This document shows positions 41,974-64,000 of a stretch of DNA of 64,000 nucleotides, one piece after another. A program made the translations under genes and the position numbers. Numbering within the stretch: position 1 is the first letter of the stretch; the number at the start of each line of letters is the position of its first letter. Under the pieces are notes generated by a model, which had not been told where the DNA came from, searched no databases, and saw only the letters and a program-made list of their open reading frames with translations. The DNA is from Candidatus Omnitrophota bacterium. GTDB taxonomy: Bacteria > Omnitrophota > Gorgyraeia > Tantalellales > Tantalellaceae. The stretch covers positions 11,229-75,228 of the forward strand of contig JBARQV010000033.1 in assembly GCA_049643885.1 (NCBI GenBank). The letters are read 5' to 3'.

Positions 41974-41977
41974 GTTA

Positions 41978-42136: not shown

Positions 42137-42141
42137 CTTCT

Positions 42142-43449: not shown

Positions 43450-43600
43450 ATGTCATCCCAGGCGAGGCTGAAATAGAAATATGTCATCCCGGAAACTGCC
43501 GAAGGCAGTTATCCGGGACCCAATAAAATTATTATGTGATCCCCGCTTTCGCGGGGATGACATATGCCTAAATCGGCGAATTCCGGGATGACATACTTTC
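43447..43600. repeat. Cluster of REP/MITE-like short repeats (GGGATGACAT core in both orientations, GCCTTCGGC / GCCGAAGGC tetraloop hairpins)
   Basis: ATGTCATCCC(A/G)G at 43450 and 43482, reverse copies CGGGGATGACAT at about 43547 and CCGGGATGACATA at about 43580; 23-nt string TCGGCGAATTCCGGGATGACATA recurs at 49281. Confidence 0.6.
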
Positions 43601-43649
43601 GCCTTCGGCGATGGAAGAGCACCATATTTCCATATTAATCAAAAATAAG

Positions 43650-43678
43650 TTGACAAATTATCAAGATAGGAATAAAAT
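43650..43678 (+). promoter_or_regulatory. Candidate sigma70-type promoter (TTGACA-N17-TAAAAT)
   Basis: Near-consensus -35/-10 with 17-nt spacer about 175 nt upstream of the BNR-repeat gene; followed by a GC hairpin at 43684-43714. Confidence 0.4.
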
Positions 43679-43851
43679 ATAAAGGCGGGTGAGGGTAGGG
43701 GGCGATCACCCGCCTTTGTTACGCGAAAGATCCGGGACCGGATCTGCGTTTTACTGCTAATATTCTACCAAAAATCATGAATATGTCAACTATAAATTGA
43801 GGTGGTTGTTTACCGTTAAAACCGCTCCCGACAGGGGCAGGAGAGGTGAAA

Positions 43852-45435: not shown

Positions 45436-45475
45436 TCCCTTCCGGGGAGGCGTCGCTCCGATTGTAAGTTTAGGA

Positions 45476-45551
45476 GTGCAGTATGTTCCCTACCAGGGCC
45501 CCTCCGCCCGGTGTGGGTCCTCCCTGTACGGGAACATACTGCACCTTTTCT
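45476..45551 (+). terminator. Rho-independent terminator (long stem-loop + T-tract)
   Basis: GTGCAGTATGTTCCC ... GGGAACATACTGCAC 15-bp inverted repeat followed by CTTTTCT, 40 nt after stop at 45435. Confidence 0.6.
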
Positions 45552-45618
45552 ACATTAACTACAAACTACTAATTTCTATCTTCCAATTTCCACTATCCAC
45601 TATCCACGTATATTACGC

Positions 45619-45646
45619 TTGACAAAACACATAATATTGTTACAAT
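45619..45646 (+). promoter_or_regulatory. Candidate sigma70 promoter for fabG-acpP-fabF (TTGACA-N16-TACAAT)
   Basis: Consensus -35 hexamer, 16-nt spacer, TACAAT -10, about 20 nt upstream of GGAGG RBS of fabG. Confidence 0.5.
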
Positions 45647-45667
45647 TATGGGAGCGCGGAGGTGGTT

Positions 45668-46694
<1,027 letters not shown>

Positions 46695-46713
46695 AACCCA
46701 CCAGAGAGAACTG

Positions 46714-47973
46714 ATGCCGAACAGAAGAGTAGTCCTTACGGGGGTAGGTGCTATTACTCCCGTAGGGAATAATGTTCCAGATTTTTTGAATGCTGTCGTT
46801 AATGGCAAGACCGGTGTTGCCCGGCTTTCCGCTTTTGACCCCACACCTTTTAATTCCCACATTGCCGCTGAGGTCAAGAATTTTGATCCATCACCTTACA
46901 TGAACCCTAAACAGGTCAGAAGGCTGGACCAGTTTGTCAAGTTCGCCATAGTCGCGGCCAAACAGGCGTTCGAGGACAGCGGGCTGGACATAGGGAAAGT
47001 GACAAGGGAGAGAGCGGGCGTTTATATCGGTTCGGGTATCGGCGGGCTTCATACAGTAGAATTTGAGCACGAAAAGTACATGAAAACACCTGATAGAAAT
47101 GTTGCCGCTTCGAGGATATCTCCGTTTTTGATCCCGATGTTGATAGTGAACATGGCTTCCGGGGTCGTTTCCATAGAACTCGGGTTTAAGGGGCCGAATT
47201 CAGCGGCCGTGACAGCTTGCGCGACTGGAAGCCATTCGATCGGCGACGCTTTTAAGATAATCCAAAGGAGCGAAGCCGATATTATGGTAGCCGGCGGGTC
47301 TGAAGCGGCCATAACCAATATGGGGTTTGGCGGTTTTTGCGCCTTGAAGTCACTTTCCACCCGGAATGATGAGCCCGAGAAGGCTTCCCGGCCTTTTGAC
47401 AAAGAGAGAGACGGCTTTGTCATGGGCGAGGGCGCGGCGGCGATCGTGCTGGAAGACTTGGAGCATGCCCGGGGAAGAGGGGCCCGTATATACTGTGAGA
47501 TCGTGGGTTACGGCATGAGCGGTGATGCCTATCACATGACGGCTCCCGATCCGAGCGGCGACGGCGCTATAAGGTGTATGAAGGCCGCTCTCGATGACGC
47601 GGGTTTGAATCCGGAAGATGTGGATTATATAAACGCGCACGGAACTTCGACGGTGCTCAACGATAAGATGGAAACGCTCGCGATCAAGGCGGTGTTTGGT
47701 GAATACGCGAAGAAGCTCGCGGTAAGTTCGACAAAGGGAGTGACCGGACACATGCTTGGCGCTGCCGGTGCCGTGGAACTTATAGCCTGCATCAAAGCGA
47801 TCGAGAATAAAGTCATACCTCCTACCATAAATTATGAATATCCGGACCCCGAGTGCGACCTTGATTATGTCCCGAACGAAGCCAGGGAAAAGGAAGTGAA
47901 TGTGGCGCTCAGCAATTCACTCGGATTTGGCGGACCTAACGCGACTCTTGTAATCAAGAAGTTTACCGGATAA
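46714..47973 (+). CDS. fabF: 3-oxoacyl-[ACP] synthase II (KAS II)
   Basis: [15 protein letters not shown]-terminus, active-site [17 protein letters not shown] and GHMLGAAG motifs. Confidence 0.9.
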
Positions 47974-48063
47974 TCATCATGTAATCATCATGCCTTGTTT
48001 TTCATGTGTGGATTCTAATGATCAGGAGAAGCCTGAAGCGGTAAAAATAGAAGGAGATTGATC

Positions 48064-49218
48064 ATGAATTACCTTTTAACAGAAGAACAACAGATGATAA
48101 AAGATCTGTGCCACCAGATCGCCGAAGAGAAGATCAAACCCGTGGCCGCTCATTACGACGAGACGAATGAGTTTCCCTGGGAAATAGTGAAAGTCCTTGC
48201 CGAATCGGATATCTGCGGGATATACATCCCGGAACAGTATGGCGGCATGGACGGCGGAGTGTGTGCCCTGGCCATCGCTACCGAGGAACTTTCCTGGGGC
48301 TGCGGCGGTATCGCTCTGGCTTTCGCGGCCACAGGTTTGGGGACTTTCCCGATAATCCTTTTCGGGAATGACCAGCAGAAAGCCAAGTATCTTCCCGATA
48401 TCGCGTCCGGTAAAAAGCTGGCGGCGTTCGCTCTTACCGAGGCCGAGGCCGGGTCAGACGCCGGGAGCATCAAGACGACAGCAAAAAAGGACGGTGATCA
48501 TTACGTCCTTAACGGCACTAAGCAATGGATAACCAACGGCGGTGAAGCCGAGACATATACTGTTGTCGCCATGACAGACAAGTCGAAAGGCGCGCGCGGC
48601 GCGAGTGCTTTTATCGTTGAGAAAGGCACTCCGGGATTTGATTTCGGTAAAAAAGAGGACAAGATGGGCATCAGGGCTTCAGCCACGAGAGAGCTGATAT
48701 TCAGTGATTGCCGCATCCCGAAAGAAAACCTCCTCGGAAAAGAAGGCCTCGGGTTCATCGTCGCGATGAAAACGTTTGATTTTTCACGCCCGGGAGTCGC
48801 GGCGCAGGCGATCGGTATCGCCAAAAGGGCGCTTGATGAAGCCGTGAAATACGCGCACGAGAGGAAACAGTTCGGCCATTCCATATCTTATTTCCAGGGC
48901 GTCCAGTTCATGCTCGCGGATATGGCTATACAGCTTGAAGCGGCGCGCGCTTTGGTCTATGCCGCGGCCAGGATGATAGATAACGGGGACAAGAACATAG
49001 CCAAAGTGTCTGCGATGTGCAAGACGATGGCTTCCGATACGGCCATGAGGGTCACCACTGACGCGGTCCAGGTCTTCGGCGGGTACGGGTACATGAAAGA
49101 GTATCCGGTGGAAAAACTCATGAGAGACGCGAAGATCACGCAGATATACGAAGGGACGAACCAGATACAGAGAAGCGTTATCGCGTCGGCCCTTATCAAG
49201 GAGAGCCTCGCGAAGTAA
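48064..49218 (+). CDS. Acyl-CoA dehydrogenase (short-chain/butyryl-CoA dehydrogenase-like)
   Basis: ACAD fold motifs including catalytic IYEGTNQIQR; AGGAG RBS 8 nt upstream; followed by etfB/etfA. Confidence 0.85.
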   Translation: MNYLLTEEQQMIKDLCHQIAEEKIKPVAAHYDETNEFPWEIVKVLAESDICGIYIPEQYGGMDGGVCALAIATEELSWGCGGIALAFAATGLGTFPIILFGNDQQKAKYLPDIASGKKLAAFALTEAEAGSDAGSIKTTAKKDGDHYVLNGTKQWITNGGEAETYTVVAMTDKSKGARGASAFIVEKGTPGFDFGKKEDKMGIRASATRELIFSDCRIPKENLLGKEGLGFIVAMKTFDFSRPGVAAQAIGIAKRALDEAVKYAHERKQFGHSISYFQGVQFMLADMAIQLEAARALVYAAARMIDNGDKNIAKVSAMCKTMASDTAMRVTTDAVQVFGGYGYMKEYPVEKLMRDAKITQIYEGTNQIQRSVIASALIKESLAK

Positions 49219-49220
49219 TT

Positions 49221-49302
49221 TTATTTGTTCCCGGGTCTCGGCCTTCGGCCTCGCCCGGGATGACATATTTTTCTCGGCGAATTCCGGGATGACATATTTG
49301 CC
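49221..49302. repeat. REP/MITE-like element, second locus of the GGGATGACAT family
   Basis: GGCCTTCGGCC hairpin + CCCGGGATGACATAT + CGGCGAATTCCGGGATGACATA; shares an identical 23-mer with 43573-43595. Confidence 0.6.
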
Positions 49303-50094
49303 ATGAGGGTAATAGTACTTATAAAACAGGTTCCTAACACGACGGATGTAAAGATCGATCCGGAGACCAACACCCTTAAAAGGGAAGGGGTGGAATCCGT
49401 CATCAATCCTTTTGATGCGTATGCCATAGAGGAAGGCGTCCGTATCAAAGAGAGAGCCGGTGAGGGCGAAGTGACTGTGATAAGCATGGGCCCCCCGCAG
49501 GCTGAAGACGCTTTACGCGAAGCGTTATCTTTAGGATGCGATAAGGCGATCCTGCTCAGCGACAGGAAGTTCGCCGGCAGCGATACCTGGGCGACCAGTT
49601 ACGCGCTTTCGCAGGCGATCAGGAAGATCGGCGATTACGATCTTATTATCTGCGGGAAACAGGCGTCGGACGGTGATACCGCACAGGTAGGTCCGGGGGT
49701 TTCGATGCACCTGGACATACCGCAGGTGACTTACGTCAAAAAGATCGAATCTTTGACTAAAGAGAAAGCTACAGTGGAGAGGATGACAGAGGAAGGTTTT
49801 GATATCATCGAAGTTCCGCTGCCCGCTGTCCTTACGGTGGTCAAAGAGATAAATGAGCCGAGGCTGCCTTCGCTTAAGGGAAAGATGAAGGCCAAGAAAG
49901 AGCAAGTGCCGGTCTGGAGCGCGGATGACGTGAACTGCGACGAGAAGAAGATAGGCCTGGACGGCTCGCCCACCAGGGTACTGAAAATATTTACTCCCCC
50001 TCCCAGGGAAAAAGGGCGCGTTTTGGAAGGGGAACCGCCCGATATATCCAAGGAACTCGCGGGGCTTCTGAGAGATGTTGTGATCGGCGGTTGA
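49303..50094 (+). CDS. etfB: Electron transfer flavoprotein beta subunit
   Basis: MRVIVLIKQVPNTTDVKID... canonical EtfB N-terminus and length. Confidence 0.85.
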   Translation: MRVIVLIKQVPNTTDVKIDPETNTLKREGVESVINPFDAYAIEEGVRIKERAGEGEVTVISMGPPQAEDALREALSLGCDKAILLSDRKFAGSDTWATSYALSQAIRKIGDYDLIICGKQASDGDTAQVGPGVSMHLDIPQVTYVKKIESLTKEKATVERMTEEGFDIIEVPLPAVLTVVKEINEPRLPSLKGKMKAKKEQVPVWSADDVNCDEKKIGLDGSPTRVLKIFTPPPREKGRVLEGEPPDISKELAGLLRDVVIGG

Positions 50095-50122
50095 GCAATG
50101 GACTACATACGACCGACGAAAA

Positions 50123-51334
50123 ATGGCAAATAATGACGTGATAAAAGTGATACTGGACAAATGTACGGGCTGCACGCTTTGCGTGAAGGTGTGCCCGTTT
50201 GACGCCATCAAGATGGTGGATAAAAAAGCGGTCATAGATCTGAGCAAGTGCACTCTATGCGGCGCGTGTGTGGACGCCTGTAAGTTTAACGCCATCATCA
50301 TACAAAAAACCGAAAAGAAAGAAAAGGTCGACCTTTCCGCCTACAGGGACGTGTGGGTATTTTGCGAGCAGAAGAAAGGCAAGGTCCAGTCCGTAGCTTT
50401 CGAGCTTTTAGGTAAAGGAAGAGAACTCGCCGATAAATTAGGCGTCAGTCTCTGCGCGGTCCTCCTCGGGGAGAATGTCGGGGAAGAAGGCGATGAACTT
50501 ATCGCGCGAGGCGCGGACAAGGTATACCTGGCCGACAACCCGAAACTACGCGCGTACCAGGACGAACCGTATACGAAGGTCTTGACCGAATTGGTCCGGA
50601 AGCATAAACCCGAGATCGTTCTTTGCGGCGCCACTACCATAGGCCGGAGCCTTATTTCCCGCGTAGCCGTCAAGATCGAAGCAGGGCTCACGGCCGATTG
50701 CACAGGGTTGGACATAGACCCGGAAGAGAGGCTTCTGCTGCAGACCAGGCCGGCTTTTGGCGGCAACATCATGGCTACGATCATCTCGCCTAACGCCAGA
50801 CCGCAGATGGCGACGGTGAGGCATAAGGTCATGAAAGAAGCAGTTCCGGAAAAAGGCAGGAAAGGCGAGGTCATCAAGGAAGAGTTCCCCGAAGAGATCT
50901 ATACCTCCCGCAGTAAGCTTATAGATATCGTAGAAGAAATAGAAGAAACGATAAACATCGCCGAAGCGAATATCATTGTATCCGGCGGAAGAGGGGTAGG
51001 GTCAAAAGAAAATTTCGATATCATCAAGGATTTTGCCCTTTCCGTCAATGCCGCTGTCGGCGCTTCAAGAGCGGCGGTAGATTCCGGATGGATGCCGTAT
51101 TCCCATCAGGTAGGGCAGACCGGGAAAACGGTTTGTCCTAAACTTTACATCGCGTGCGGGATCAGCGGACAGATACAGCATCTTGTAGGCATGAAAAGTT
51201 CAGACGTGATCGTCGCTATCAATAAAGATCCCGAAGCACCAATATTCAGCGTAGCCACTTACGGAATAGTGGACGACCTCTTCAAAGTCGTTCCTCTCCT
51301 CACAAAGCAATTCCAGCAGGTATTAGGTAAATAG
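50123..51334 (+). CDS. etfA: Electron transfer flavoprotein alpha subunit with N-terminal 2x[4Fe-4S] ferredoxin domain
   Basis: Two CxxCxxCxxxCP motifs in first 60 aa followed by EtfA FAD-binding domain (...VAINKDPEAPIFSVATYGIVDD). Confidence 0.85.
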   Translation: MANNDVIKVILDKCTGCTLCVKVCPFDAIKMVDKKAVIDLSKCTLCGACVDACKFNAIIIQKTEKKEKVDLSAYRDVWVFCEQKKGKVQSVAFELLGKGRELADKLGVSLCAVLLGENVGEEGDELIARGADKVYLADNPKLRAYQDEPYTKVLTELVRKHKPEIVLCGATTIGRSLISRVAVKIEAGLTADCTGLDIDPEERLLLQTRPAFGGNIMATIISPNARPQMATVRHKVMKEAVPEKGRKGEVIKEEFPEEIYTSRSKLIDIVEEIEETINIAEANIIVSGGRGVGSKENFDIIKDFALSVNAAVGASRAAVDSGWMPYSHQVGQTGKTVCPKLYIACGISGQIQHLVGMKSSDVIVAINKDPEAPIFSVATYGIVDDLFKVVPLLTKQFQQVLGK

Positions 51335-51585
51335 GGTATTAGGATATCAGGGTATCAGGGGGCAGGATACCGGGATATCAGGGTATCAGGGGGCAGGATA
51401 CCGGGGTATCAGGGTATCAGGAGGTAGGATCCCAGGGTATCAGGGTATTTGGGGGGCAGGGTATCAGTATATCGGGATACCAGTTTTTTGTCCCTAATAA
51501 CCCGATTACCTGATACCCAGCCTCCCGATTTCCCGGTTTCCTGATATCCTATCTCCCGATTCCCCAATTTCCTGATCTTTCTCCC
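51335..51585. repeat. Long hairpin-forming repeat array (GGGTATCAGGG units, tandem 31-nt duplication, then complementary CCTGATA(C/T)CC units); same family as 41978-42136
   Basis: ATATCAGGGTATCAGGGGGCAGGATACCGGG occurs twice in tandem; downstream arm is its approximate reverse complement; shares CCCGATTCCC and GATTACCTG with the 42-kb copy. Confidence 0.65.
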
Positions 51586-51654
51586 TTGACTACTACCACT
51601 TAGTTAGGTATACTCAATGAAACATCCCTAAACATAAATAAAGGTGTTCAAACT

Positions 51655-51873
51655 TTGACTAGAAACTCTATTATGCTGGAACGAGGTAGAAAAAAATATA
51701 ACGTACAAGAAATAGCCGACTTGCTGGGCATATATCGTGGAACGGTCATTAACTACGAGAAAAAAGGCATTTTTCCGGCGCCTCACAGGAATCCTATAAA
51801 CAAATACAGGGAATATACCGAAGAAGACGTAGAGAGCCTGAAGAGGATACTTGAGGGGAAATCGCACGCATAG
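51655..51873 (+). CDS. Small MerR-like helix-turn-helix DNA-binding protein
   Basis: YNVQEIADLLGIYRGTVINYEKKGIF resembles MerR/excisionase-type HTH; TTG start 8 nt after AAGGTG (alternative ATG 51673). Confidence 0.5.
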   Translation: MTRNSIMLERGRKKYNVQEIADLLGIYRGTVINYEKKGIFPAPHRNPINKYREYTEEDVESLKRILEGKSHA

Positions 51874-51885
51874 AAGGGAGTAGCC

Positions 51886-54800
51886 GTGTATTTTAAGAGC
51901 CTTGAAATAGTAGGATTCAAGTCGTTTTTAAACAAAACAAAATTAAAGTTCGAACCCGGAGTCACCACCATAGTCGGTCCGAACGGGTGCGGGAAAAGTA
52001 ATGTCGTCGACTCCATAAAGTGGGTGCTCGGGGAACAGTCTTCCAAGTCGATGAGAAGCTCTTCCATGCAGGACGTTATTTTTAATGGGACCGATAAGTA
52101 TGATCCCGTGAGCATGGCGGAAGTATCACTTACACTTTCTAACGAAGACAGGGCCCTGCCGGTGGATTATGATGAGGTCACAATAAGCCGCAGGCTTTTC
52201 CGTTCGGGGGAAAGCGTGTATTTCCTCAATAAGACCCCCGTGAGGCTGACAGACGTCAGGGAACTTCTCTTGGGGACCGGTATCGGGACAAGTTCCTATT
52301 CAATAGTGGAACAGGGCAGACTGGACATGATCCTCAACGCGAAGCCGGAAGACCGCCGGTATGTTTTTGAGGAAGCCAGCGGCATCACCAAATTCAAGGC
52401 AAAGAAAAGAGAGGCCTTGCTTAAACTGGAACACACCCGGAACAACCTTATCAGGATCACCGATATCATACATGAAGTGGAAAGGCAGATCAAGGCGATC
52501 GAGCGCCATGCACGAAAGGCCGAAAAGTATAAAGCCTTTTATGACCAGCTTAAAGACCTTGACGTTAAATTGTCATACCGGAATTACGTGGATCTCGAAA
52601 AAGAGAGCAGTTCGTTGGAGCGGAGCAGCGGCGAGATCGGGGAACTTTCCGGAAAGCTGAAAGCCTGGCTGGAAGAGGCCACGGGCACGCTTGTGCGGCA
52701 AAAAGAAGAATACAACCAGGTGGTGGGCGATCTGCAAGCCACCCAGGGCCAGGTCATGAAGCTCAGGTCAGATGTCGATAAGAATAACCACGTGATGAGC
52801 GTTAACGGGGAGAGGATACAGGAACTTAAAAGGTACACGGAACAGCTTGACAAGGAGATCAAAGAGATAAGCGGCAGGCAGGACGCGTTATGCAGCCGTC
52901 TGGAAAGGCTCGAAGTCAGATGTTCCGATATTACAGGCCAGAGGCGGGGCAAGGAGGAAAAACTGGCCGGGCTTGAGGAAAATGTAAAAAGAATACTCGG
53001 TATCGTGGAAGAGAACAAGAAGCGGATGAAGGAAAACCGCGAGAAGACTCTTGATATCGTCAGCGAGCAGACCAAAACGAAGAACATGCTGATCAAGATG
53101 AACGCTGACATCCAGAACATGATGGCCAGGGAAAGGCGGCTCAGGACCGAAAAAAGTAACGTCGAGGCCGAAAAAGAGGCCGTTTCGTTCGAGTTGGAGA
53201 AAGCGGAGGAAAGGGCCGGCCAGGTAAGGGAAGAGCTCGACAGAAAAGTACTGGAGTTCAGGGAGTTCAGTGACGCATATTCAAAGAAACAGCAGGAGCT
53301 GTCCGCCCTGAACGAAGAAAAAAGGAACAAGGAAAAACGGCTTAACGAAATAAAACCCCGCAGGGAGTTCCTGGAAAAACTTATCAGCGAGCGCGAAGGA
53401 ATAGGCGAAAGCGTGAAAGCTATAATAAGGTGCGTCGAGACCGGCGATATCCGGCTTGCCGGGGTCCGGGGGATACTTTCGGAGATCATAAACGTGGGCC
53501 AGGGCTACGAGGAATCGCTCGAATTCCTGCTCGGTGACGTGTCCCAGGCTATCGTGGTCGAAACCAAGGAAGCAGCAGCCCATGTCATCAGATACCTGGA
53601 AGATAATTCCCTGGGTAACGTGAGCTTTGTGATCCTGGATGAACTGGAAGGTTCTGCCGGGAACTTTACGCCGGAGGACGGGAGATTCAGCAATGTTACC
53701 CGGATACTTGCCGGTGATGAACGCTGCCGTGCGGCCCTTTGCAATATGCTCAGAGATGTGTTTGTCACAGAAAGGCGGGAAGGATCAGGGTCTTTGATCG
53801 AGGAAGGTGGGGTTGTTACGGGCAGGATAATAGGAGAGAAGGGCGAGGTCCGGCAGAAAGGCATGTACCGGAGCCGGAACTATTCGCAAAAGGAGATGAT
53901 CTCGCTTTTCGGACGCCGTGAGAAGGTAGCTCAACTTCGCGAAGAAGAGGAAGGCATTAAAAAACAATTATCGGATATAAGCGAAGCTGTAAGGGGCCTG
54001 GAAGAATGGTTGGAGAAGTCCGTTGTCGAAAAAGAAAGGATCGAGGCCGAGCTCAGAGAAAAACAGATGGAATTCGCCGCCGCCCAGTCCAGAAGGGGCG
54101 CGGTGAAGGAGAAGGTAGATGCCCTGAACGATGAAATACTGCTTCTGCAGACGGAACTTGAGGAAGAGATATCGTCGATCAAACAGCTCCGCGAAGAAGG
54201 GGAGGCTCTGAACCAGCGTCTTAACGAGATCGAGTCCGAAAGCGCGAAGCTCGAAGAATTAATAGAGGAGTCGCAAGGGATCATACAGGAAGGCGCACAG
54301 GAAAGGGAAAAGGCTCTTTACGCGATATCCGACCTTAAGGCAGAACTTTCAGCGCTGCGCAAGGAAGAAGAAAACCTGACCGATAACCTCCATCGGGAGA
54401 AGGAAAATTACAGCCGGATAGATCTGGAAGTCAGGGGAAGGCATGACCGGATCGAGAACAACGGCCGGCGGGCCGGCGAGCTGGAAAAGGAAATAAGCGA
54501 TCTTGAGGTCAAGAACCGGGAACACCAGGCGGAAATAGAGAAAAAATCAGCCGAGATCGAAGAAAAAGCCGGCCGGAAGGGAAGCCTGGAACAGGTCATT
54601 ACCCAGGCCGAATCCGCTATCAAGAGGGCGGCACAGGAGTTGGAAGAAGCAAGGAACAAGGCCAGGGATGTCGAGATAAGCCGTAAAGAGATCGAATATA
54701 AGCGGACCAACCTGATCGATAAGATCCGTGATGCGTATAAGGTCGACCTGTCCCGGATCGAGGTCGATCTAGACGGCCAGTCCCTGGACTGGGAGGCTGC

Positions 54801-55479
54801 CAGGGGCCAGATCGAAGAACTCAGGACGAAACTGGACAGGATGGGAGAGGTCAGTCTCGGGGCGATGGAAGAACATGACCAGCTTCAGCAGCGTTATGAC
54901 TTTCTCGTAAAACAAAGAGACGACCTGGTAAAAGGCGAGGAGTCTCTCATGCAGGCTATCGCCAGGATCAATCGGACCACCCGCAAGATGTTCGTGGAGA
55001 CATTTGAAGCGATAAGGAATGAGTTCCGCGATTACTACCGCATGTTGTTCAACGGCGGCAGGGCCGACCTGATCCTTACAGACGAGTCTAACCTACTGGA
55101 AAGCGGAGTAGATATAGTCGCCAAGCCTCCCGGGAAAAAACTGCAGAATATATCACTGCTTTCCGGAGGAGAAAAGTCCCTCACGGCCATAGCCCTGGTA
55201 TTCGCGCTTTTCAAGGTAAACCCGAGCCCGTTCTGTATCCTGGACGAGATAGACGCGCCGCTTGACGAATCGAACGTTGTGCGGTTCAGCCGCGTTCTGC
55301 AGGAGTTCCTCAAGACTTCGCAGTTCATCATCGTTACACATAACCGGACGACAATACGGCTGGCGGATGTCCTGTACGGAGTGACCATGCAGGAAAAAGG
55401 CGTCTCGAAGATCGTCTCTGTGAAGTTTAAGGACGAGGACGAACTGCTCGCGGAAGAGGCTGCCCAGGTAGCCGCTTAG
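51886..55479 (+). CDS. smc: Chromosome segregation protein SMC
   Basis: N-terminal Walker A GPNGCGKSN, long coiled coils, C-terminal LSGGEKSLTAIALVFA signature and D-loop ILDEIDAPLD; GTG start after AAGGGAG RBS. Confidence 0.9.
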   Translation: MYFKSLEIVGFKSFLNKTKLKFEPGVTTIVGPNGCGKSNVVDSIKWVLGEQSSKSMRSSSMQDVIFNGTDKYDPVSMAEVSLTLSNEDRALPVDYDEVTISRRLFRSGESVYFLNKTPVRLTDVRELLLGTGIGTSSYSIVEQGRLDMILNAKPEDRRYVFEEASGITKFKAKKREALLKLEHTRNNLIRITDIIHEVERQIKAIERHARKAEKYKAFYDQLKDLDVKLSYRNYVDLEKESSSLERSSGEIGELSGKLKAWLEEATGTLVRQKEEYNQVVGDLQATQGQVMKLRSDVDKNNHVMSVNGERIQELKRYTEQLDKEIKEISGRQDALCSRLERLEVRCSDITGQRRGKEEKLAGLEENVKRILGIVEENKKRMKENREKTLDIVSEQTKTKNMLIKMNADIQNMMARERRLRTEKSNVEAEKEAVSFELEKAEERAGQVREELDRKVLEFREFSDAYSKKQQELSALNEEKRNKEKRLNEIKPRREFLEKLISEREGIGESVKAIIRCVETGDIRLAGVRGILSEIINVGQGYEESLEFLLGDVSQAIVVETKEAAAHVIRYLEDNSLGNVSFVILDELEGSAGNFTPEDGRFSNVTRILAGDERCRAALCNMLRDVFVTERREGSGSLIEEGGVVTGRIIGEKGEVRQKGMYRSRNYSQKEMISLFGRREKVAQLREEEEGIKKQLSDISEAVRGLEEWLEKSVVEKERIEAELREKQMEFAAAQSRRGAVKEKVDALNDEILLLQTELEEEISSIKQLREEGEALNQRLNEIESESAKLEELIEESQGIIQEGAQEREKALYAISDLKAELSALRKEEENLTDNLHREKENYSRIDLEVRGRHDRIENNGRRAGELEKEISDLEVKNREHQAEIEKKSAEIEEKAGRKGSLEQVITQAESAIKRAAQELEEARNKARDVEISRKEIEYKRTNLIDKIRDAYKVDLSRIEVDLDGQSLDWEAARGQIEELRTKLDRMGEVSLGAMEEHDQLQQRYDFLVKQRDDLVKGEESLMQAIARINRTTRKMFVETFEAIRNEFRDYYRMLFNGGRADLILTDESNLLESGVDIVAKPPGKKLQNISLLSGGEKSLTAIALVFALFKVNPSPFCILDEIDAPLDESNVVRFSRVLQEFLKTSQFIIVTHNRTTIRLADVLYGVTMQEKGVSKIVSVKFKDEDELLAEEAAQVAA

Positions 55480-56708
55480 GAAGGCTTTTTCATTCTAGCA
55501 GGATCAAAAACGCAGGTCTTGTTTTTTCCGGTCTGCTTCGCGGCATAGAGCGCAAGGTCCGCTTTCTCTACAAGATCATCCCCTACTCCGCTGTCGGCGG
55601 GAAAAGTCGCCAGCCCGAGACTTATGGTCAATTTCAGGTCTTCCGGAAGAGAATCATAAAATTTAAAAGAGTTATAGACTTCCATACGCAGCCTTTCGGC
55701 TATGATCTGGGCGTTGCTTTTGTCAGTGTTTGACATGATGATGCAGAATTCCTCGCCGCCGTACCTGCACACAAAGTCTGTTTTGCGCGAAAACCGGTCA
55801 AGGGTCCCGGCAACTCTTTTTATGGCTTTATCTCCCTCCTGGTGACCCAGGGTATCGTTGTAGTTCTTGAAATTATCTATGTCTAACATGAGAAGGCTTA
55901 GACAAGAGTCTTTGTCAGTGGCTTCCATGAGCATAGTGTCGAGTGCCTGATGGAAATGACGCGTATTCCATAACCCGGTCAGCCAGTCAGTTCTTGAAAG
56001 ACGGACGGTCTCCTGGTAAAGACGCGAATTTTCAATGGCCAGGGCGGCCTGGTCGGCGAACATGTTCAATATCCGTATATGGTCTTTTGTGATAGGGTTG
56101 CGGGAGGAAATATTGTCGGCCAGTATCGCGCCAAGGGTCCTGTTGCTTGTCTTAAGCGGAACAGTTACGAAAAGATCAGCATTCAGGAGATTCTTTATAT
56201 CGTCGTGGACTTTTGATTTCGCTTCTTCAGTATTGATCTCGAAGGGCATGCCTTCCAGTATGGTCAAGGCCAGGATCCCGGTGTCTTCTTTGAGGGGTAT
56301 GCTTATACCTTTTACTATGCTGTTCAGCTTTGATTCCGGATCTTTTTTAAATCTTTCATAAGCCGTCGCAAGCGCCTGCAGGGGAAGGCGCTTTGCGTCG
56401 ATAGAATGCCAGACCTTATCGGCTTCTTCCGCGGAGTGCGGGCCGATTCCCATTTTCCCCTCAAGCGTCTTTTTATCTTCATTGACCATAAAAAGCATGG
56501 CCCTGTCAAACCCAAGTCCCTCATGAGATGTGACAGAGGTGAGTATCGTGTACAGTATCTGATCAAGTTCCAGTGATTGCATTATGGAATTGGTGATCTC
56601 TGAGAGCATCACAAGCTCATGCTTGGTCTTCTCGTAGAGATCCCTTAATTCCGAGTTATTTTTTTCAATTTCGGAAACAATCTGATTTTCAGCAAGCCGT
56701 TTATTCAT
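55476..56708 (-). CDS. GAF-domain diguanylate cyclase (GGDEF, here GGEEF)
   Basis: C-terminal GGDEF domain motifs RSDWLTGLWNTRHF, LMLDIDNFKNYND, RYGGEEF; N-terminal GAF-like region; 4-nt tail overlap with smc. Confidence 0.85.
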   Translation of the reverse strand: MNKRLAENQIVSEIEKNNSELRDLYEKTKHELVMLSEITNSIMQSLELDQILYTILTSVTSHEGLGFDRAMLFMVNEDKKTLEGKMGIGPHSAEEADKVWHSIDAKRLPLQALATAYERFKKDPESKLNSIVKGISIPLKEDTGILALTILEGMPFEINTEEAKSKVHDDIKNLLNADLFVTVPLKTSNRTLGAILADNISSRNPITKDHIRILNMFADQAALAIENSRLYQETVRLSRTDWLTGLWNTRHFHQALDTMLMEATDKDSCLSLLMLDIDNFKNYNDTLGHQEGDKAIKRVAGTLDRFSRKTDFVCRYGGEEFCIIMSNTDKSNAQIIAERLRMEVYNSFKFYDSLPEDLKLTISLGLATFPADSGVGDDLVEKADLALYAAKQTGKNKTCVFDPARMKKPS

Positions 56709-56849: not shown

Positions 56850-56906
56850 ATAGTCAACTTACAAGTTAAGAGATAAAATATCAAGAAGGACTTGTGAAAG
56901 CGGTTA

Positions 56907-59900
56907 TGTGGACGAAAAGTAAACCAATAAAAATATGTATTCGTGTAATTGCAGCTATAACTCTGCTCTGTTTCATTACATTAGACATAGCATGGGCTTA
57001 TCCTGTAGACGGCAGAACCTCCCCTGAAACCCTTCTCCAGCAGACTCTATTCACTTCAAACGAAAAGGCAGAATCACTCAGCAAAGTAGCCATTCGATAT
57101 TTCCGCATAATGGTCGAGCTGTATTTCGACGACCTTCCAATAGCCGGCGTTGAAGAGAAAGCAAAAGAGATGCTGAAAATAGTCCAGGAAGCCGCAGAAA
57201 GGCTTGCCGGGCAGGAAGAGGCTGTAAGAATGCGGGAGAATAACCGTTTCAGCGTGGAAAGCAGTATAGGCCAGGTCCTTTTTAAGATAGATAGCGGGGA
57301 CATAGTCCTAAAATTCTTCTTTCCCCAGTACAGGGAACTCGAGGCAGCAAACCAGGGATTTGACGTGAAAGAAGAGAGAACATTTCACACGTATCTGAAA
57401 TACCAGGTCCTAAAGGCGAAGCAACGAGAAGCAGGGAGGACAGACAGAAAGACTGTTCAGGGGGAGAGGCCGGCCGCGACGGAAAACATCGAGCAGATCA
57501 TAGAGCATATAAGGGAAAAACTTGATAGAAACGAAAAGGTCATGGTGCTGGTCGACGGTGACCCGGGGACCGGTAAAACGGATATAATCGCTCCCGGAAT
57601 AAGAAAAGCTTTCTCATCCTGCAAGGTGATAGCGCTCGATGATTATATAAGGTCCAGAGACAGCGTAAACTATGTTGATGTCCGCCGGCTTGAAGGCGAC
57701 CTCTGGGCCGCGCAAAGGGAAAATGTAGATGTTATCGTTTTTGAAGGATTGAACCTGCAGTTCGCTCTGGACGAGATAAAAGCCCAGCCTTCACCTTTCC
57801 AGGAATACATTTATCAGCTTATGGGCCGCAAGCCGGTCGGTATCAGGGCGATTGTAGACGACGAGCAGGAGCGGATCGACTTTATCAAGAAGACTTCTCC
57901 TACCGCCGATATATTCAGGGCAAGGATGAGATACAGGCAGGGGAGCGAGTACGACCTGAAAGATGGCTACGATTTCATATTCAGGCGTAAGACCGCGAAA
58001 ACGAGCCTCCAAGAGATGCTTTCCAGGGATGCGGAGAGGGCGCCTCCTGTTAAATCCGGGATATTGAAGCTTGTTCTGGAGGACTCTCCGGAGAAGTTCA
58101 TGCCCGAGTACCGTGAAAAAGTAGAGGCATTTTTGGAGGTGATCGGCGAGGAATTCGGGTGGGAGCTTATAGACGATATTACGACTACCGAGGATCTTAA
58201 TGAAAAGGCGCTGGAAAGATTAGAGAAGGAGATATGTTCCCTTTATTCCCATCCTGATTACGTTAAAGGGAACGAGCAGTATACCCAGGAGCTGAGGAGG
58301 CACGTGGATAGTGTGATCTATCTTGTTAAAAGCATGGCCCTGGGCAGCGGATTCGACAAAAAGACGGCCGCGGCTCTCGGGGTGGTCGCAGCCGCGCATG
58401 ATCTGGGGAAACTCAAGACCCCGGAGAAGCTGGCCCTCCATTATTCCGAGAAATTGCTTGGCGAAATGACTTCCGGGGAAAGAAGCATGATCTTCGAACA
58501 TACGAAGGATTCTCTCACCATGCTGAAGGAAAACGGTATTAGACTTCCTCTTGAAGCCATTTTGCCCTTGGTTTTGATCCATGAGATCCCGACAGCCAGA
58601 GACCACCAGATCGTCGGGTATCTTCCGGCCATGGCGAAACTGCGGATACCGGGTGAAGACCAAAAGATCAGGGTGGAAGTCAAGACCCTTTTGAGGGAGA
58701 TAAGCCGGTCCCTGTGGAAGGCGCCCGCCGTAATGTCTATCACAGACCGGTTCTGCGCTTTCACCGAAAGGCGTCCTTATCACCGGGGAAGGGTAATAGG
58801 CCATGAAAAAGACATCAGCCACGGCTTTTTGAAATTCCAGGAGCACGAGGGATATCTTGATAACGATGCAGTAAGGGCTGTTGAACCGGTCCTTATAGAT
58901 TATTTTAAGAAGCTGGAAGGAGACCGGACGGAAAGGGAAGACGGCGGCACTTTGCCCGCCGTGATCCCGATACAATTTACACTTGGGCAGTATCTGGCCG
59001 GCGTGGCGGTTTTCTTGATCCTTTTTGTGAACCTGTGGGCGCTTTTAAAGATAATGTGGGCGAAAAGAAGATTGCGCCAGTATCTGCAGGATAAAAGGCC
59101 TTTAAATAATGTGCAGGTCAGGGGCGGTTATCCGACGTTGTCTATAATAAGAGGCGTCAGGGTAGCGGCCGGAATAGATCCGGAAGGCCGGGTCGTTACG
59201 GAAACCTGGAAAAGGAGCCGCATCCTGGGGCCTCTGGATCTGCTTTTATTTTTAGTTTATTTTCCCGTCCGCCTGCTTATAGGTTTGAAAGAAATTTTTT
59301 CCGGTAAAGAAATGGTGCCGCCCGGCGATGGCCGTGAAAACTCCAAACCGCAAAGGTGGGCAGCTCCGACTCAGAGGACAGAAGTAACATCTAAGAGTGA
59401 AGCTCCACCCGTGTCTTCGGGGAAGGCAAGGGTAAGAGTCGCCGACACGCATCGTATGTTAACAGAACTTCTTACGAATGAGAACTGGAGGGATTATAGT
59501 TTTACAAGGGAATATTTTACAGAGCGTTTCACGGAGGAAGTTATTATAAGAGCATTCGATGTTCTTGTAAAGCTTGGAATATTGAATGTTGATACGTCCG
59601 AGCAGCAATGGACTTACTGGTTTGCCGATCCGTACCGGAACATGCCTAATGAAAATCTTGCCTGGATAAGTAACCATCTTATCAGGACCCTGCCCCAGGC
59701 CCCGTCAGAAATTGAATTGGGTATTGTAAGAAAAAGCCTGGGATCTTTCACCGGCGAAGCCGTAGAAGATACGGCCGAAGAGGCCGCACCGGCAGGGGAA
59801 GAGCCGATGGAAGAAGTCACTTCCGTAGAAGGTGTCCTTATTATCAGGATAGTCGCCGCGATAGCCGCGGACGAAAAGCTGAGAAACGGCCAGTTTGACA

Positions 59901-62900
59901 GGACCGTGGTCGGGGACAAGATCGGTCAGTCTTTCGGTTTGTTAGAAGTGTTCAATAAAATGGTCCAGCGCGGGATACTGGTAATGATCAGGGACAAGTA
60001 CTGCCTGGCGGAATATTTGCGGACAATGTCCTCCACGGAACGCAGGGGATTGCTGGAGAAAAAACTTGGCATAGCCGTCACGGCAGAAGCGCCTGCAGCA
60101 TCTCCTGAAAGACCCGCGGCGCCGCCCGTCGCTGGTGACCGGGCTTCCGTAGAAGAGAGCCGAAAGGGCAATTTGCTCAGAGTGTTTGATACTATTGTTG
60201 CTGATGACAACCTGAAAAACAGTTCTTTCGGGCCCCATATCGAAGAACAGACCGGTCTCAACGTTGAAGCTCTTAAACCTGTGATCGACGAACTGGTAAT
60301 GTTAAGCGTGCTGGATATCGCCGGTGTGGGATACGTCCTTAATGTCCAGTACCGTATAGCTGGTCCCGAAGCAGTCGGAAGAGTGAGAAAGATCCTCGGC
60401 GGTTTGCCGGATCATATGAATGTCAGCGAGCGGCTTAAGACCAGGCAGGCGCTCCAGACAGCTCTTGCCGGGCTCGGAGCGTCTACTGAAGATCGTTCCC
60501 CGGGACAAACCGGTCCCGCGGAACAGCCCGTTATGCCGAAAGAACCGCGGAAGCTCAAACCGCACGAAACAGCCGCGGGTGAAGGAGGAATAACCCGGGA
60601 AAGCAGCGCCGTAAAGGTATTAAAAATAATAGTGGAAAATAAAGAACTGAAAACCGCAAGCTTTAATAGGGGCGGGCTCATGGAAAAAGCGGGAAATATG
60701 GAAATGGGGACCGCTTATCTAGGACTGGTCGATCTTGAAACGCTGGGGATATTAAAGGTACTGAATAAAAATAAACCCAAAGGTGAATGGGTGTACGAAC
60801 TCGGCGTTGAATACAGAGACGCGCCGGAAGAAGCGCTCAAGTCGATAATGGAAGACAAGGACCCGAACGGCCTGAGACGCATGTCGGACCAGGCAAAACC
60901 GGGGCAGATCGAAAAAGTCAAGATGTTCCTGAAGTTGAAGCTTGCCGGGAAAAGCGGCGCAAGCGGAACCAGCCCGGCCGGTTTTCTCGGTGGTTTTGTC
61001 CCCATGCCTTTACTGGCGAACGGAAGTTTGGGAGCGGGGAGTTATTTCAGCGTTATCGCGGTGCTGGCCGTGGCGGCCATGATCTATTACTACCTGCCGG
61101 TCTGGTGGAGAATATCGAAAGCGAAAAGCCTTTTTCGTAAGTACATGAAGGCAGAAGGAGACGATGAAAAGATAGATGTGAAAGGTGAAATTGAATCGGA
61201 AACAGATTTTGAGTTAATCCATTATCCAGCCACCATAACCGACAGTGCATATGAAATTCTGGTCGTCCAGGAAGGTGTAGAGGTAAGAGAGCGCACTTTA
61301 AAATTCTTAGGTGAAGAGCTTAAGGTCATTTGGACAGATTATACGACGACTAAAACAAAATTACTTTATCTTCCGCTTGAGATAGTGGCTTGGACTATTG
61401 CGATCATAGCTATCATCGCAGTTATCCCGTTCATGGTCATATATGCTGTCGGGAAAAATATCGTAAAAGATAATCCTTTCAGGACCCTTTACAGGACCTC
61501 TAAGGCAAGAAAGGTCCTAACTGAATATGTGACTCTACGGGATGAACTTGAGAGCGACAAGCCGATGGACCCGTTTGAGGCAGAAATAAAAGAGGAAAGG
61601 CTGGCTGAACTCGGGGCAAAATGGAAAATCGGACCTGCGCCGGGGCAGGGTATGAGTATAACATGTGATGCCTCTATACGCATAGCACCCGGGATAAGGA
61701 TGCTTTATGAATATAGCGGCCGCGGGAAGAAAAATGTATATACATTTGTAAGTTTAGGTAAATATGACGGGTATTTCTACAGGGCTCGTTTACGGAATGC
61801 CCCCATCGTAATTGCCATAGAATTTTATCGTCTTTACAGGAAGACGGTGAGCCTTGCGAAAAAGATGCCAAGATTCTTAGATGATCTGATCCGGGCGATC
61901 CCGGTAATAGATAAGAAGATCGTTTTTATTTTGGATAAATTTAACAGGAAGACAGACGGCGAAGAAGAAAAAGGCGAGAAAGCGGCTGAAGAGGAGATCG
62001 CGCTCGAAGACAAAGGTGATATTCTTAACGGCTTTAACGAGGTCGTGAAGAATTTTGTCAAGAAAAGCAATCCGGTCGAATTTACGCGCAAGGATTTCCG
62101 GGGAAAGAGGATAAAGAGCAAAAAAGGGAAAGAGGCCTTTTCATATACTACCTGCACGGCCGAGTTGGAAGGATTAGTAACGCTTGGGGTTTTGGCCGTG
62201 GACAATGCTCTAAGGCCATATAAGTATCAAGTAGATGAGAAATATCTCAGGGGTCCCCCGGAAGCGATCGAGAAAAGACTTGAAAAAGTAAGAGCTATTA
62301 TCGAAAGTGAAAACCTGCCTGCCGATCCAACTGCAAAAAAACTCAGAGAATTAAAAGAAAGAATGGAAGATGAGGCCTTTACGGAAGAAGAAAAGGCCGT
62401 TCTCGCCGAAAGCAGAGAGATAACCGACCGCAAATACAAGGAAGCCCTGCTCAAAGACGAAGCCGTAGTGAAATTCTACCTGGAACTGCTTTACGGATTG
62501 AATCTGGAACTTTACGCCCTTGCTTACGAACGTATGCATCTTGAGGATTCCGGGGGACCGGCGAAAGAACTTGCCGGGATAAAAAAGAAAATAAGCAATT
62601 TGCGAAGACGGTCCGAAAGAGAGATCAATAAATTCAAGAAAATGAAATACAGCGGTCCTGCGATCAGGCGGTATGAAAATTACCGGGGCAAGGCCAAGGA
62701 ACACTTCAGGGAAGCCATCGAGCTTATAGGCAGGGAAAAGCTTGATGAGGAGACGATCAAGGCTTTCAGGGGCATGATGGGAAGGGCGATAAATGACCTT
62801 AAAGCGGACAGGATGTGGCTTCTCGGCAGGAGACTTGAGAGAAAACGGAGAGCCAAAAGGGTCTGGATAGACGAAAAGAACGGTAAATATATATTAGTCG

Positions 62901-64000
62901 AGGGCCGCTGGGTCGGCAAAGGCGCGCCTCAGCTTAAAAAACACAGGACTGCTTACAGTTACCTGTGGGACGCTTTCCGCGCTACGGACCACAAGATAGA
63001 TTCGGAAGATGAAAACCTGCTCTGGATAACGCCTGTCATAGATGAATTAAAGAGCATCCGGGATCATCTGCAGGAAAACGAGAAAACACCTTCATCTGTG
63101 CCGGAAAAAGAGATCAGGGAACTAGTGAAGAGGTTGAGTGCCGTCCTGGAGCAGTTAAAAGGGGTGAAAGTCGAGGAAAAGAGGTTCGCACGGTATACCC
63201 TTGACGCGGTCGCCAGGCTCGTCCGCATAAGAAAAATCGACACCGCGAGAGGGCTGTTGACGACAGCCGTGAGGCTTTTTGAGGATAGACGTAACAGCGT
63301 GGAAGACATACTTGAGAACATAAAAACAGGAAGCCTGAACGCGCTTCGCGATAAGGTGGAAAAACGGAACAAGGATATCGCGGGACGAACGGAAAGGATC
63401 ATCGAATACTTTAAAAAAGGCGGGGATGACAATACAAGAAAAGCCCTCGGAGAATTAAGAGGATTAAAGAGGCTCAGGTGGATGCGGGAGCCGGAATATT
63501 CCGGGCTTGACCGGCAACTGTTCTTGTGCGTGCAGAGCGTGGCGTCCGGCAGGCCGGACATGGAAAAGATAGAGTCGACTATGCGCATTGTGAAGTCAAG
63601 GGCCAAAAACGCGGATATCCTTTCGCACTTTATGGAGGATTACAGAGACCTGCATGAGCTTTGGCTTTTAGGAAAGAGGCCGGACCTGAGAACAGAGTTT
63701 GACGTCTTCAAATTCACATTCCAGGAATATCTCAGCAAGGCCGACAGGATACGAGGCAGGCCCGGAAGGATCGGGTCCTGCGAAGAAGTTCAGCGCGCTC
63801 CCCGGACTTTCTGGACAAGATTCCATCAAGCCGCTTTTATCCCGTTCCGGATGGATGACCCGTCCGGCAGGACGGATAAAAAAGGAAAACCTGTAAGAGT
63901 GTTCAACCCGGCGTTCCAGGCCGTTTCAGATATGATGCTGATCCAGCTCTTGCCTGATCTAAAGCATATCGTGACCGCTCTTAAAAGAAAAGAGACCCGG
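56907..64000 (+). CDS. Giant multidomain protein, 3'-partial (no stop before window end; more than 2360 aa visible): N-terminal signal/anchor, uridine-kinase/PRK-like P-loop, HD-domain signature, four winged-helix-like repeats, internal TM helices, long helical C-terminal region
   Basis: Uninterrupted frame from 56895 (GTG) / 56907 (ATG) to position 64000; not in ORF track because it lacks a stop; all overlapping antisense ORFs are short. Confidence 0.85.
58240..58640 (+). other. HD-domain (metal-dependent phosphohydrolase) signature inside ORF 56907-
   Basis: RRHVDSVIYL ... LGVVAAAHDLGKLKTPE ... LIHEIP pattern H...HD...H typical of HD/HDIG domains. Confidence 0.45.

Follow-up and report, generated by a model that had tools for sequence, protein, structure and literature searches.

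The window analysed here is a stretch of 64,000 nucleotides from a Candidatus Omnitrophota bacterium (GenBank assembly GCA_049643885.1, contig JBARQV010000033.1, positions 11,229 to 75,228 of the forward strand). An open reading frame (ORF) of 2,364 codons reaches its end on the plus strand (56906..64000) and is the N-terminal fifth of one very long, real gene, called elsewhere as a protein of 11,637 amino acids (aa). We favour, with modest confidence, the reading that its product is a membrane-tethered scaffold for nucleotide signalling or turnover, one of the giant multi-enzyme proteins already catalogued in Omnitrophota. This scaffold is probably cytoplasmic and possibly turns over cyclic di-GMP (c-di-GMP). 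In its architecture, soluble blocks are strung between transmembrane (TM) hairpins and split by winged-helix (WH)-like spacers and disordered linkers. The modules of this protein described below all lie on the plus strand.

The last in-frame stop before the ORF was found at 56867-56869, and from there the frame is open to base 64000 (2,377 codons in all). Two candidate starts are available, GTG at 56894 and ATG at 56906. The ATG is favoured because homologues of the protein begin with MWTT..., and the public gene call on contig JBARSM010000028.1 starts at the GTG, not at the ATG. The coordinate 56907, given in an earlier note on this DNA, is one base out of frame and produces many stops on translation. 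The same note had described a frame of more than 7 kb without a stop up to the end of the window, which was confirmed, and the motifs that it quoted were found within a few bases of where it had placed them. Neither a stop nor a frameshift was seen, as six further assemblies, taken from NCBI, ENA and Logan, preserve the frame, across 3,267 codons each in L002, L003 and L005 and up to the contig ends in L004, L006 and L007. In JBARSM010000028.1 (GCA_049644745.1, 146 kb, a Candidatus Omnitrophota metagenome-assembled genome), which differs from the window at 9 of 7,095 bases, the ORF is called as the single 11,637-aa gene, without any Pfam hit on record. An exact look-up with the protein of the neighbouring GAF-GGDEF gene returned 14 contigs. 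The giant protein was read over aa 1-3,267, with aa 1-2,364 inside the window; the gene extends ~27.8 kb past the window, of which 2.7 kb were read. Neither conserved C-terminal peptides nor the exact DNA at the distal end of L002 gave a match in scans of genome and metagenome contigs.

A run of ~2,370 stop-free codons at ~49% GC cannot be the product of chance (~e^-110), and the proteins encoded next to the gene, together with the near-identical partial copies P0002 and P0030, are named as Candidatus Omnitrophota. An artefact of assembly or annotation, with the ORF chimeric or pseudogenised, would fit the origin of the sequence in a metagenome assembly and the lack of a Pfam hit for the called gene, and the patchy differences between strains described below could represent a mixed-strain consensus. 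However, the six further assemblies keep the frame equally open, homologues of the modules with conserved catalytic residues are present at the same locus of other Omnitrophota genomes, and the folds were predicted with confidence. An artefact is therefore extremely improbable.

The first enzyme-like block is a P-loop kinase-like module (57518..58021, aa 205-372), recognised by its motifs and by AlphaFold and Foldseek. Its P-loop region reads VLVDGDPGTGKTDII (57545-57589) and includes the Walker A motif GDPGTGKT (57557-57580, aa 218-225), followed by VIALDDYIRS (57626-57655, with LDDY at aa 244-247), VIVFEG (57728-57748), the lid RMRYRQ (57923-57940) and GYDFIF (57965-57988). Three P-loop sequences of the family, 40-45% identical, share K-MVL-DGDPG-GK, LD-Y, V--EG-NLQ, DE--R, R...RQ and GYDFIF-R; the Walker A motif is invariant in all three, and so are R340, R344 and Q345 of the lid. 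The LDDY motif was aligned onto the QDDFF of NRK1 in one sub-threshold alignment. By general knowledge of the PRK/uridine kinase family, the acceptor-side Asp motif and the lid arginines are presumably catalytic. The best profile matches, AAA_16 (2e-4) and Zeta_toxin (0.0011), both covered the Walker A region only, while NCBIfam PRK06547 reached 21.7 bits against a cut-off of 173 and NCBIfam udk gave an E value of 0.039 in two of the three members.

When aa 181-690 were modelled with AlphaFold from a 10-row alignment (mean predicted local distance difference test, pLDDT, of 77), the module formed a five-strand alpha/beta domain. Foldseek matched it to guanylate kinase, TTM1 kinase, NRK1, APS kinase, PFK-2 and phosphoribulokinase with probabilities of 0.97-1.0 and E values of ~1e-2, pointing to a kinase-type P-loop fold closest to members of the PRK/uridine kinase family. 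As modelled, the domain is a PRK/uridine-kinase fold in which the Walker A, the acceptor-side Asp and the arginines of the lid are all intact. The P-loop of this type that the earlier note had proposed is thus borne out by the Walker A, the Asp motif, the lid and the fold match, but not by the Pfam PRK score.

The second block is an HD module of the HD-GYP/PgpH type without GYP (58022..58975, aa 373-690), identified by motifs, profiles and the same model, in which VVAAAHDLGKL lies at 58382-58414. Eight HD sequences of the family, only 24-33% identical, share an invariant H466, H498-D499, K502, H512, H532, D535, H559, D614, E621, R623 and Y625. The metal-binding signature H...HD...D (H466, H498-D499, D614) is therefore kept in all eight, and the predicted fold is the all-helical one of HD domains. 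The isolated domain scored 23.4 bits with Pfam HD (PF01966, cut-off 22), compared with 18.2 bits when the whole 2,364-aa query was used, and Pfam HD was matched by 8/8 relatives with a best E value of 7e-10. An HD domain had been claimed before, and this claim stood for the Pfam HD threshold on the isolated domain, the ligands and the fold, but not for membership of Pfam HD_5 by score.

Against solved structures, the family HD profile matched the HD-GYP proteins PmGH (E 2e-7) and DvhD (6e-7), then PgpH (1.6e-4) and V-cGAP3 (2e-3). Cyclic-dinucleotide phosphodiesterases make up the four best structural and the five best sequence-profile matches of the module. H532, H559 and ITDRFCAFTERRPY align to residues of PmGH (the extra His ligands and the DxxDALxSxRPY tail), with the second His of the 'HH' missing, and the DxFxAxTExRPY tail typical of the HD-GYP class is conserved. 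Judged by sequence and model, the nearest relatives of the HD domain are cyclic-dinucleotide phosphodiesterases, with the core metal ligands (H, HD, H, H, D) all present. At the position of the GYP loop, an insertion of 30 aa (58586-58675, aa 561-590) was modelled as disordered (pLDDT <50). It contains 'VGYLP', and this 'GYLP' does not align to GYP and is absent from the relatives. The insertion is lineage-specific and missing in most of them.

An exhaustive HMMER search with aa 1-1200 against 1.84 billion representatives returned 26 proteins, many of them giants of 2,000-6,500 aa, and every named one from Omnitrophota. A word-index protein search with the whole ORF gave one Omnitrophota protein alone, P0001, and missed the 97%-identical P0002; its negatives, among them the empty results for a query spanning P-loop and HD and for the WH alignment, do not equal absence. 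The leader and N-terminal domain (aa 1-185) are in nearly all hits, with ...CFIxYDIAWAYP... conserved, whereas the other modules have separate distributions: the P-loop module (aa ~190-366) occurs otherwise in P0003 and P0005 only, the HD module (aa 372-670) also in P0004, P0006, P0007, P0008, P0009, P0013 and P0014, and the helical module (aa ~1800-2360) also in P0001, P0003, P0004, P0006 and P0007. The closest relative, P0001, has neither P-loop nor HD. Further domains of the relatives are HATPase_c (four proteins), Ser/Thr kinase (three), HAD, PPDK_N, CofD, methyltransferase, sigma-70 region 2 and HEAT, and P0006 has PAS and GGDEF domains on record. The family is thus small and restricted to Omnitrophota, and consists of mosaic giants defined by the leader and N-terminal domain.

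The hydrophobic leader or anchor IRVIAAITLLCFITLDIAWA at 56939-56998 (feature entry 56936..56995, aa 11-30) was identified by hydropathy and by its conservation in homologues. A basic N-terminal stretch precedes its hydrophobic core of 17 aa, and it ends in ...CFITLDIAW-A|YP with an AXA-type site, AWA|YP. The motif, a hydrophobic stretch followed by CFIxYDIAWAYP, is near residue-for-residue constant in ~20 relatives and may be a lineage-specific sorting or anchoring signal. Ordinary signal peptides are far less conserved. In the upstream ORF at 9061 (9061-9200), a similar 'FFFNILSYDIALSGP' comes after the hydrophobic N-terminus. The leader is followed by the family-defining N-terminal domain (56996..57460, aa 31-185; motifs TLxQxTLFTS, PLAGVE and GQV...LRFFNP), for which searches of Pfam, NCBIfam and PDB sequences gave nothing usable and matched no known family.

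Within the window, hydropathy points to five strongly hydrophobic segments (aa 10-30, 695-717, 775-797, 1378-1400 and 1492-1515), in support of the internal TM helices claimed earlier. After the leader these form two hairpins. Hairpin 1 (58988..59296) consists of helices at aa 695-717 (58988-59056) and aa 775-797 (59228-59296) around a strongly basic 57-aa loop, and hairpin 2 (61037..61450) of helices at aa 1378-1400 (61037-61105) and aa 1492-1515 (61379-61450) around a conserved 91-aa loop. Beyond the window, in L002, there is a third hairpin (aa 2444-2466 and 2482-2505), followed by a block with a HELGH (HExxH, zinc-protease-like) motif near aa 2680. Pfam found nothing in aa 2,365-3,267, and NCBIfam and PDB sequence searches of this part gave nothing usable. 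By hydropathy, the leader and the three hairpins amount to seven hydrophobic helices in 3,267 aa, and because of the hairpins all large blocks should lie on the same side of the membrane. Counts of TM parity in relatives were dropped, as hydropathy alone misses hairpin partners.

In the scaffold that we favour, both the P-loop kinase-like and the HD domains would be active, a view that rests on their conserved residues. The kinase would phosphorylate a small hydroxyl-bearing metabolite of the nucleoside or vitamin type, and the HD domain would hydrolyse a nucleotide phosphodiester. The most plausible one would be c-di-GMP, produced by the GAF-GGDEF diguanylate cyclase whose gene (55476..56708, minus strand) is divergent from the giant ORF. 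C-di-GMP is a candidate substrate on account of a conserved association with a GGDEF cyclase, which is encoded next to the giant gene in three loci (those of this gene, P0001 and P0003) and is part of the giant protein itself in P0006. The soluble blocks would face the cytoplasm, and the WH modules would serve as spacers or docking sites and not as classical repressors. As the P-loop and HD modules occur independently in the family, a coupled kinase/hydrolase cycle is not required, and the two need not work as a pair.

Several observations weigh against this interpretation. The P-loop module did not match Pfam PRK (PF00485), and the support for a kinase from sequence comparison by itself was not significant (E >= 0.2). 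The HD module reached 24.4 bits with Pfam HD_5 (PF13487), below the cut-off of 27.2, and 4/8 relatives matched this model at E <= 0.1. The HHExxDGxGYP motif is absent; the aligned position reads LIHE and then runs into the insertion of 30 aa, with NH-E/D-P as the consensus of the family. Shuffling has distributed the P-loop and HD modules independently of each other: of the two, P0003 and P0005 carry only the P-loop, seven other proteins only HD, and P0001 neither. The link to c-di-GMP is weak, because P0001 and P0003 keep the GGDEF neighbour although they have no HD module, and the P0007 locus lacks this neighbour. Finally, the leader resembles a Sec signal in its basic N-region and AXA site, and by the positive-inside rule the distribution of Lys and Arg around TM1-TM4 would leave the hairpin loops in the cytoplasm and place the blocks with the P-loop, HD and WH1-4 modules beyond it.

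These last two points are the basis of an alternative in which the leader, as a Sec signal, is cleaved off a polypeptide that forms a surface or periplasmic enzyme array, with the kinase-like, HD and WH1-4 blocks outside and acting on periplasmic nucleotides or on an attached host or prey. The basic n-region, 17-aa core and AWA|YP at the N-terminus are kept in ~20 relatives, and the charges around TM1-TM4 would set the large blocks outside. Published TMHMM and DeepTMHMM surveys, in the parts available, call many giant-protein domains extracellular or signal peptide plus TM, and Omnitrophota are described as host-dependent episymbionts or predators (both including bioRxiv 10.1101/2023.11.21.568195). 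However, a P-loop kinase needs ATP, and the same architecture in relatives holds HATPase_c, Ser/Thr kinase, PPDK_N, methyltransferase and sigma-70 region 2. The flanks of TM5-TM7 point the opposite way to those of TM1-TM4, so that TM5 and TM7 contradict a simple alternating topology, and aa 1516-2446 carry a net charge of +51. In the same available parts, the published surveys describe a like ambiguity and question the extracellular calls, and the 2023 authors mark localisations of this kind in their own data as unlikely (bioRxiv 10.1101/2023.11.21.568195).

By analogy with the relatives, a cytoplasmic location of the soluble blocks is more plausible, because those proteins carry ATP- and S-adenosylmethionine-dependent modules, and the surface array is on balance unlikely. 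The earlier suggestion of a secreted protein acting on a partner cell was not upheld, given the cytoplasmic-type HATPase_c, Pkinase, PPDK_N and methyltransferase modules of the relatives. Taking the leader and hairpins 1-2 at face value would give an extracytoplasmic nucleotide-signalling array (a uridine-kinase-fold P-loop, an HD-GYP-like phosphodiesterase and four WH modules) on an episymbiotic or predatory cell, a version that we hold to be very doubtful. If true, such an array would act, by binding or processing, on nucleotides, cyclic dinucleotides or nucleic acids that come from an attached host or occur in the periplasm.

Nucleotide signalling was also weighed against a general housekeeping role in nucleotide and metabolite chemistry. 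The HD domain would then be a phosphatase for dNTP, (p)ppGpp, Ap4A or nucleotides, and the P-loop domain a salvage kinase of the nucleoside, nicotinamide riboside, pantothenate, glycerate or fructose type, both simply anchored in the membrane as links of a multi-enzyme string. As far as the available passages of the literature go, catalogued giants are largely 'multi-enzyme metabolic clusters' and biosynthesis is reduced in Omnitrophota, both in keeping with such a role. In contrast, the best matches of the HD domain, four structural and five by profile, are cyclic-dinucleotide phosphodiesterases, its HD-GYP-typical tail is conserved, the modules that co-occur in relatives are mostly of signalling types, and GGDEF is neighbouring or fused. 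A housekeeping role therefore seems unlikely.

The modules could also be non-catalytic, with the P-loop and HD domains acting as nucleotide-binding sensors or pseudoenzymes and the polypeptide mainly as a beads-on-a-string membrane tether. Degenerate HD-GYP and HDOD receptors are precedents for non-catalytic members of this class. The missing GYP motif, the disordered 30-aa insertion in its place and the free shuffling of modules fit this possibility, as does a ratio of nonsynonymous to synonymous polymorphism (pN/pS) of ~0.8 between strains. Yet the metal ligands, the Walker A Lys and Thr, the acceptor Asp and the lid Arg are invariant across relatives of 25-45% identity, the pattern expected of active enzymes. 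The strain differences cluster in linkers, WH1, WH3 and TM4, with just one (aa 292, in L003) inside the two catalytic modules. A non-catalytic scaffold is accordingly judged distinctly unlikely, and nucleotide signalling or turnover by active modules remains the favoured interpretation.

The variation between strains was itself peculiar. When 56906-61120 of the window was compared with L003, L004, L002 and L005, the differences were patchy and confined to the giant ORF. L003 and L004 are identical to the window over SMC (1,198 codons), GGDEF (411 codons) and ~7 kb of flank, while the giant ORF differs at 47 positions from L003 and at 65 from L004. The differences cluster at aa 793-942 (the end of TM3, a linker and WH1), 1073-1153 (a linker and WH3) and 1355-1404 (around TM4), and show no adenine bias along with the pN/pS given above. 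The pattern looks like tracts of recombination or gene conversion, or a mixed-strain consensus. A diversity-generating retroelement was rejected as its cause, as the substitutions are not adenine-specific.

Between and after the hairpins, five WH-like modules were recognised in the window with a hidden Markov model (HMM) seeded on the apparent modules, which found 27 copies in the family; a BLASTP self-comparison had missed the repeats. Modules 1 to 4 lie at 59444..59656 (aa 847-917), 59840..60043 (aa 979-1046), 60167..60376 (aa 1088-1157) and 60608..60841 (aa 1235-1312) and are supported by HMM, AlphaFold and Foldseek. Module 5 (62015..62275, aa 1704-1790) was found by HMM and is the copy commonest among other family members. 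The earlier note had counted four tandem modules; repeats are indeed present at 59444-60841, but the count in the window is five. An AlphaFold model of aa 840-1345 had a pLDDT of 73, with ~80-90 in the modules and <50 in the linkers. Each of the four modelled modules has the order helix-helix-(strand)-helix-helix-hairpin-helix, which is the winged-helix order (alpha1-beta1-alpha2-alpha3-beta2-beta3). The top Foldseek hits were mostly winged-helix, including all the compact, high-probability ones, and weak (E >= 0.06); they comprised the four-WH fragment of SelB, RPC62/RPC82, MarR and ArsR regulators and N-terminal domains of O-methyltransferases. Searches of PDB with the WH profile likewise gave mostly winged-helix proteins with weak E values (0.013-0.3), and the Pfam winged-helix hits were all below cut-off. 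The winged-helix fold suggested before for the repeats is supported by the predicted topology and by these mostly winged-helix hits.

WH modules of the relatives flank enzyme modules, and a WH tail motif stands between the P-loop and HD modules of this protein. A role as spacers or docking sites is therefore at least as likely as nucleic-acid binding. The part of the protein that corresponds to this winged-helix tail motif is 'RAPPVKSGILKLVLEDSPE', and the linker ERAPPVKSGILKLVLEDSPE (58019-58100, aa 372-398) matches the C-terminal 'RAPP...L..LP' tail of the WH spacer. This likeness suggests that the P-loop domain may have replaced the body of the spacer that precedes the HD module in relatives. 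Upstream of module 5 lies a conserved region of unknown fold (61451..62005, aa 1516-1700), ~50% identical to P0001, and downstream of it a helical module of ~560 aa rich in R, K, E and L (62303..63997, aa 1800-2364), shared with P0001, P0003, P0004, P0006 and P0007. Searches of Pfam, NCBIfam and PDB sequences with the helical module gave nothing usable and no solved relative.

The giant gene occupies a conserved position. The order etfB-etfA(ferredoxin)-merR-smc-[GAF-GGDEF]-giant (46714-56708 of the window) is conserved in at least four Omnitrophota genomes, including L008, L009 and L010, and was seen for this gene, P0003, P0006 and P0007. The locus of P0006 (L010) is without a separate GGDEF gene but has PAS and GGDEF inside the giant. 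Both the module content and the length (4,665, 4,986, 6,377 and 11,637 aa) of the giant gene vary at this position. Just upstream of smc, all related loci have a small MerR-family gene (63-72 aa), with 55250-55479 as the candidate region in the window. A promoter scan of the 198-bp divergent intergenic region gave nothing above background.

Further upstream, 40993-55479 holds housekeeping genes (aldo-keto reductase, GH1, FabG, FabF, acyl-CoA dehydrogenase, EtfB, EtfA-ferredoxin and SMC). About 16 kb of such genes separate the ORF studied here from six consecutive large ORFs (8-40192) that resemble each other and have no Pfam hits. Four of the six share an N-terminal region of 500-800 aa, 41-47% identical, with 'HIQDAHC', and five end in ...[RKVI]S[LV], the ORF at 26545-29262 ending in ...LLAAA. 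The present ORF had been counted as the seventh giant gene of this series. Comparison with the six revealed no detectable similarity, and they lack its WH modules. A link to the upstream giant genes was therefore rejected, and the ORF belongs to a separate gene family.

Giant proteins of Omnitrophota are largely unannotated, and here profile and structure methods resolved the first 2,364 residues of one of them into modules: a leader with N-terminal domain, a uridine kinase/PRK-like kinase, an HD-GYP-like hydrolase, a recurrent WH spacer and a 560-aa helical module. The gene fills a conserved chromosomal slot by smc, usually with a GGDEF cyclase, in which module content is swapped between genomes. 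The dissection yields concrete domains for expression and assay, and a defined system in which the membrane side where such giants work can be addressed.

Among known systems, the HD module is most like the HD-GYP c-di-GMP phosphodiesterases (PmGH 4MCW, PA4781 4R8Z, DvhD 9RBZ, V-cGAP3 5Z7C) and the HD domain of the c-di-AMP phosphodiesterase PgpH (4S1B), with which it shares the ligand order H, HD, H, H, D, the Lys after the HD dyad and the D-x-F-x-A-x-T/S-x-x-R-P-Y tail. Unlike them, it has no GYP and has a Glu for the second His of 'HHE' (the protein reads IHE, the family NH). It further carries a disordered insertion of 30 aa at the GYP-loop position as well as the family-specific motifs LHYS and GW.L, and it sits in a giant polypeptide and not in a REC-, PAS- or 7TM-coupled enzyme. 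The P-loop module shares its Walker A with kinases of the PRK/uridine-kinase type (Udk 3ASY, NRK1 2P0E, the TTM1 kinase domain 7Z67, FrcK 3C8U, glycerate 3-kinase 7XPC, PanK 3AVO), as well as an Asp-Asp-aromatic motif after strand 2 (LDDY here, QDDFF in NRK1), the hhhhEG strand, the DE..R segment and an arginine-rich lid. In contrast to these enzymes, it is a minimal domain of ~165 aa without a significant sequence match. Bifunctional fusions of a P-loop kinase with a phosphohydrolase are known (PFK-2/FBPase-2 1BIF; the TTM1 kinase-TTM 7Z67); the hydrolase partner here is an HD domain and, unlike in those fusions, the two occur independently, so that a push-pull pair is only a possibility.

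Tandem WH arrays (the C-terminal mRNA-binding fragment of SelB, 2PLY; RPC62/RPC82 of RNA polymerase III) and the winged helix-turn-helix of MarR and ArsR are like these modules in topology and in having several copies in a row. The modules of the giant differ in that their matches are weak (Foldseek E >= 0.06, profile E >= 0.013) and reach no Pfam winged-helix family, and in being divided by long disordered linkers and placed beside enzymes in a membrane protein.

As a whole, the protein resembles the giant TM-threaded multi-enzyme proteins of Omnitrophota described in the available passages of West-Roberts et al. 2023 (bioRxiv 10.1101/2023.11.21.568195) and Nielsen & Lui 2026 (bioRxiv 10.64898/2026.06.07.730766). 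It is Omnitrophota-encoded, at least 10,000 aa long by the gene call, and carries a signal peptide-like leader and repeated TM helices. In those same passages, the catalogued giants come from the same phylum, exceed 10,000 aa, start with a signal-like leader, have TM helices every few hundred residues and contain divergent enzyme and regulatory modules with very few sequence relatives, all as here. The signalling module of the 2026 catalogue lists 'HD-domain regulators', HATPase_c and HAD. Unlike the 'Archaeovorin' and dockerin subtypes, the protein has no SecA_DEAD, C39, S8 or dockerin in aa 1-3,267, and with no Pfam hit for the called gene it falls into the 'dark matter' fraction. These passages make no mention of the leader and N-terminal-domain family, the WH spacer family, the kinase and HD-GYP-like assignments or the smc-adjacent slot. 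The protein is therefore a dissected, Pfam-dark case of an already catalogued class and no new kind of system.

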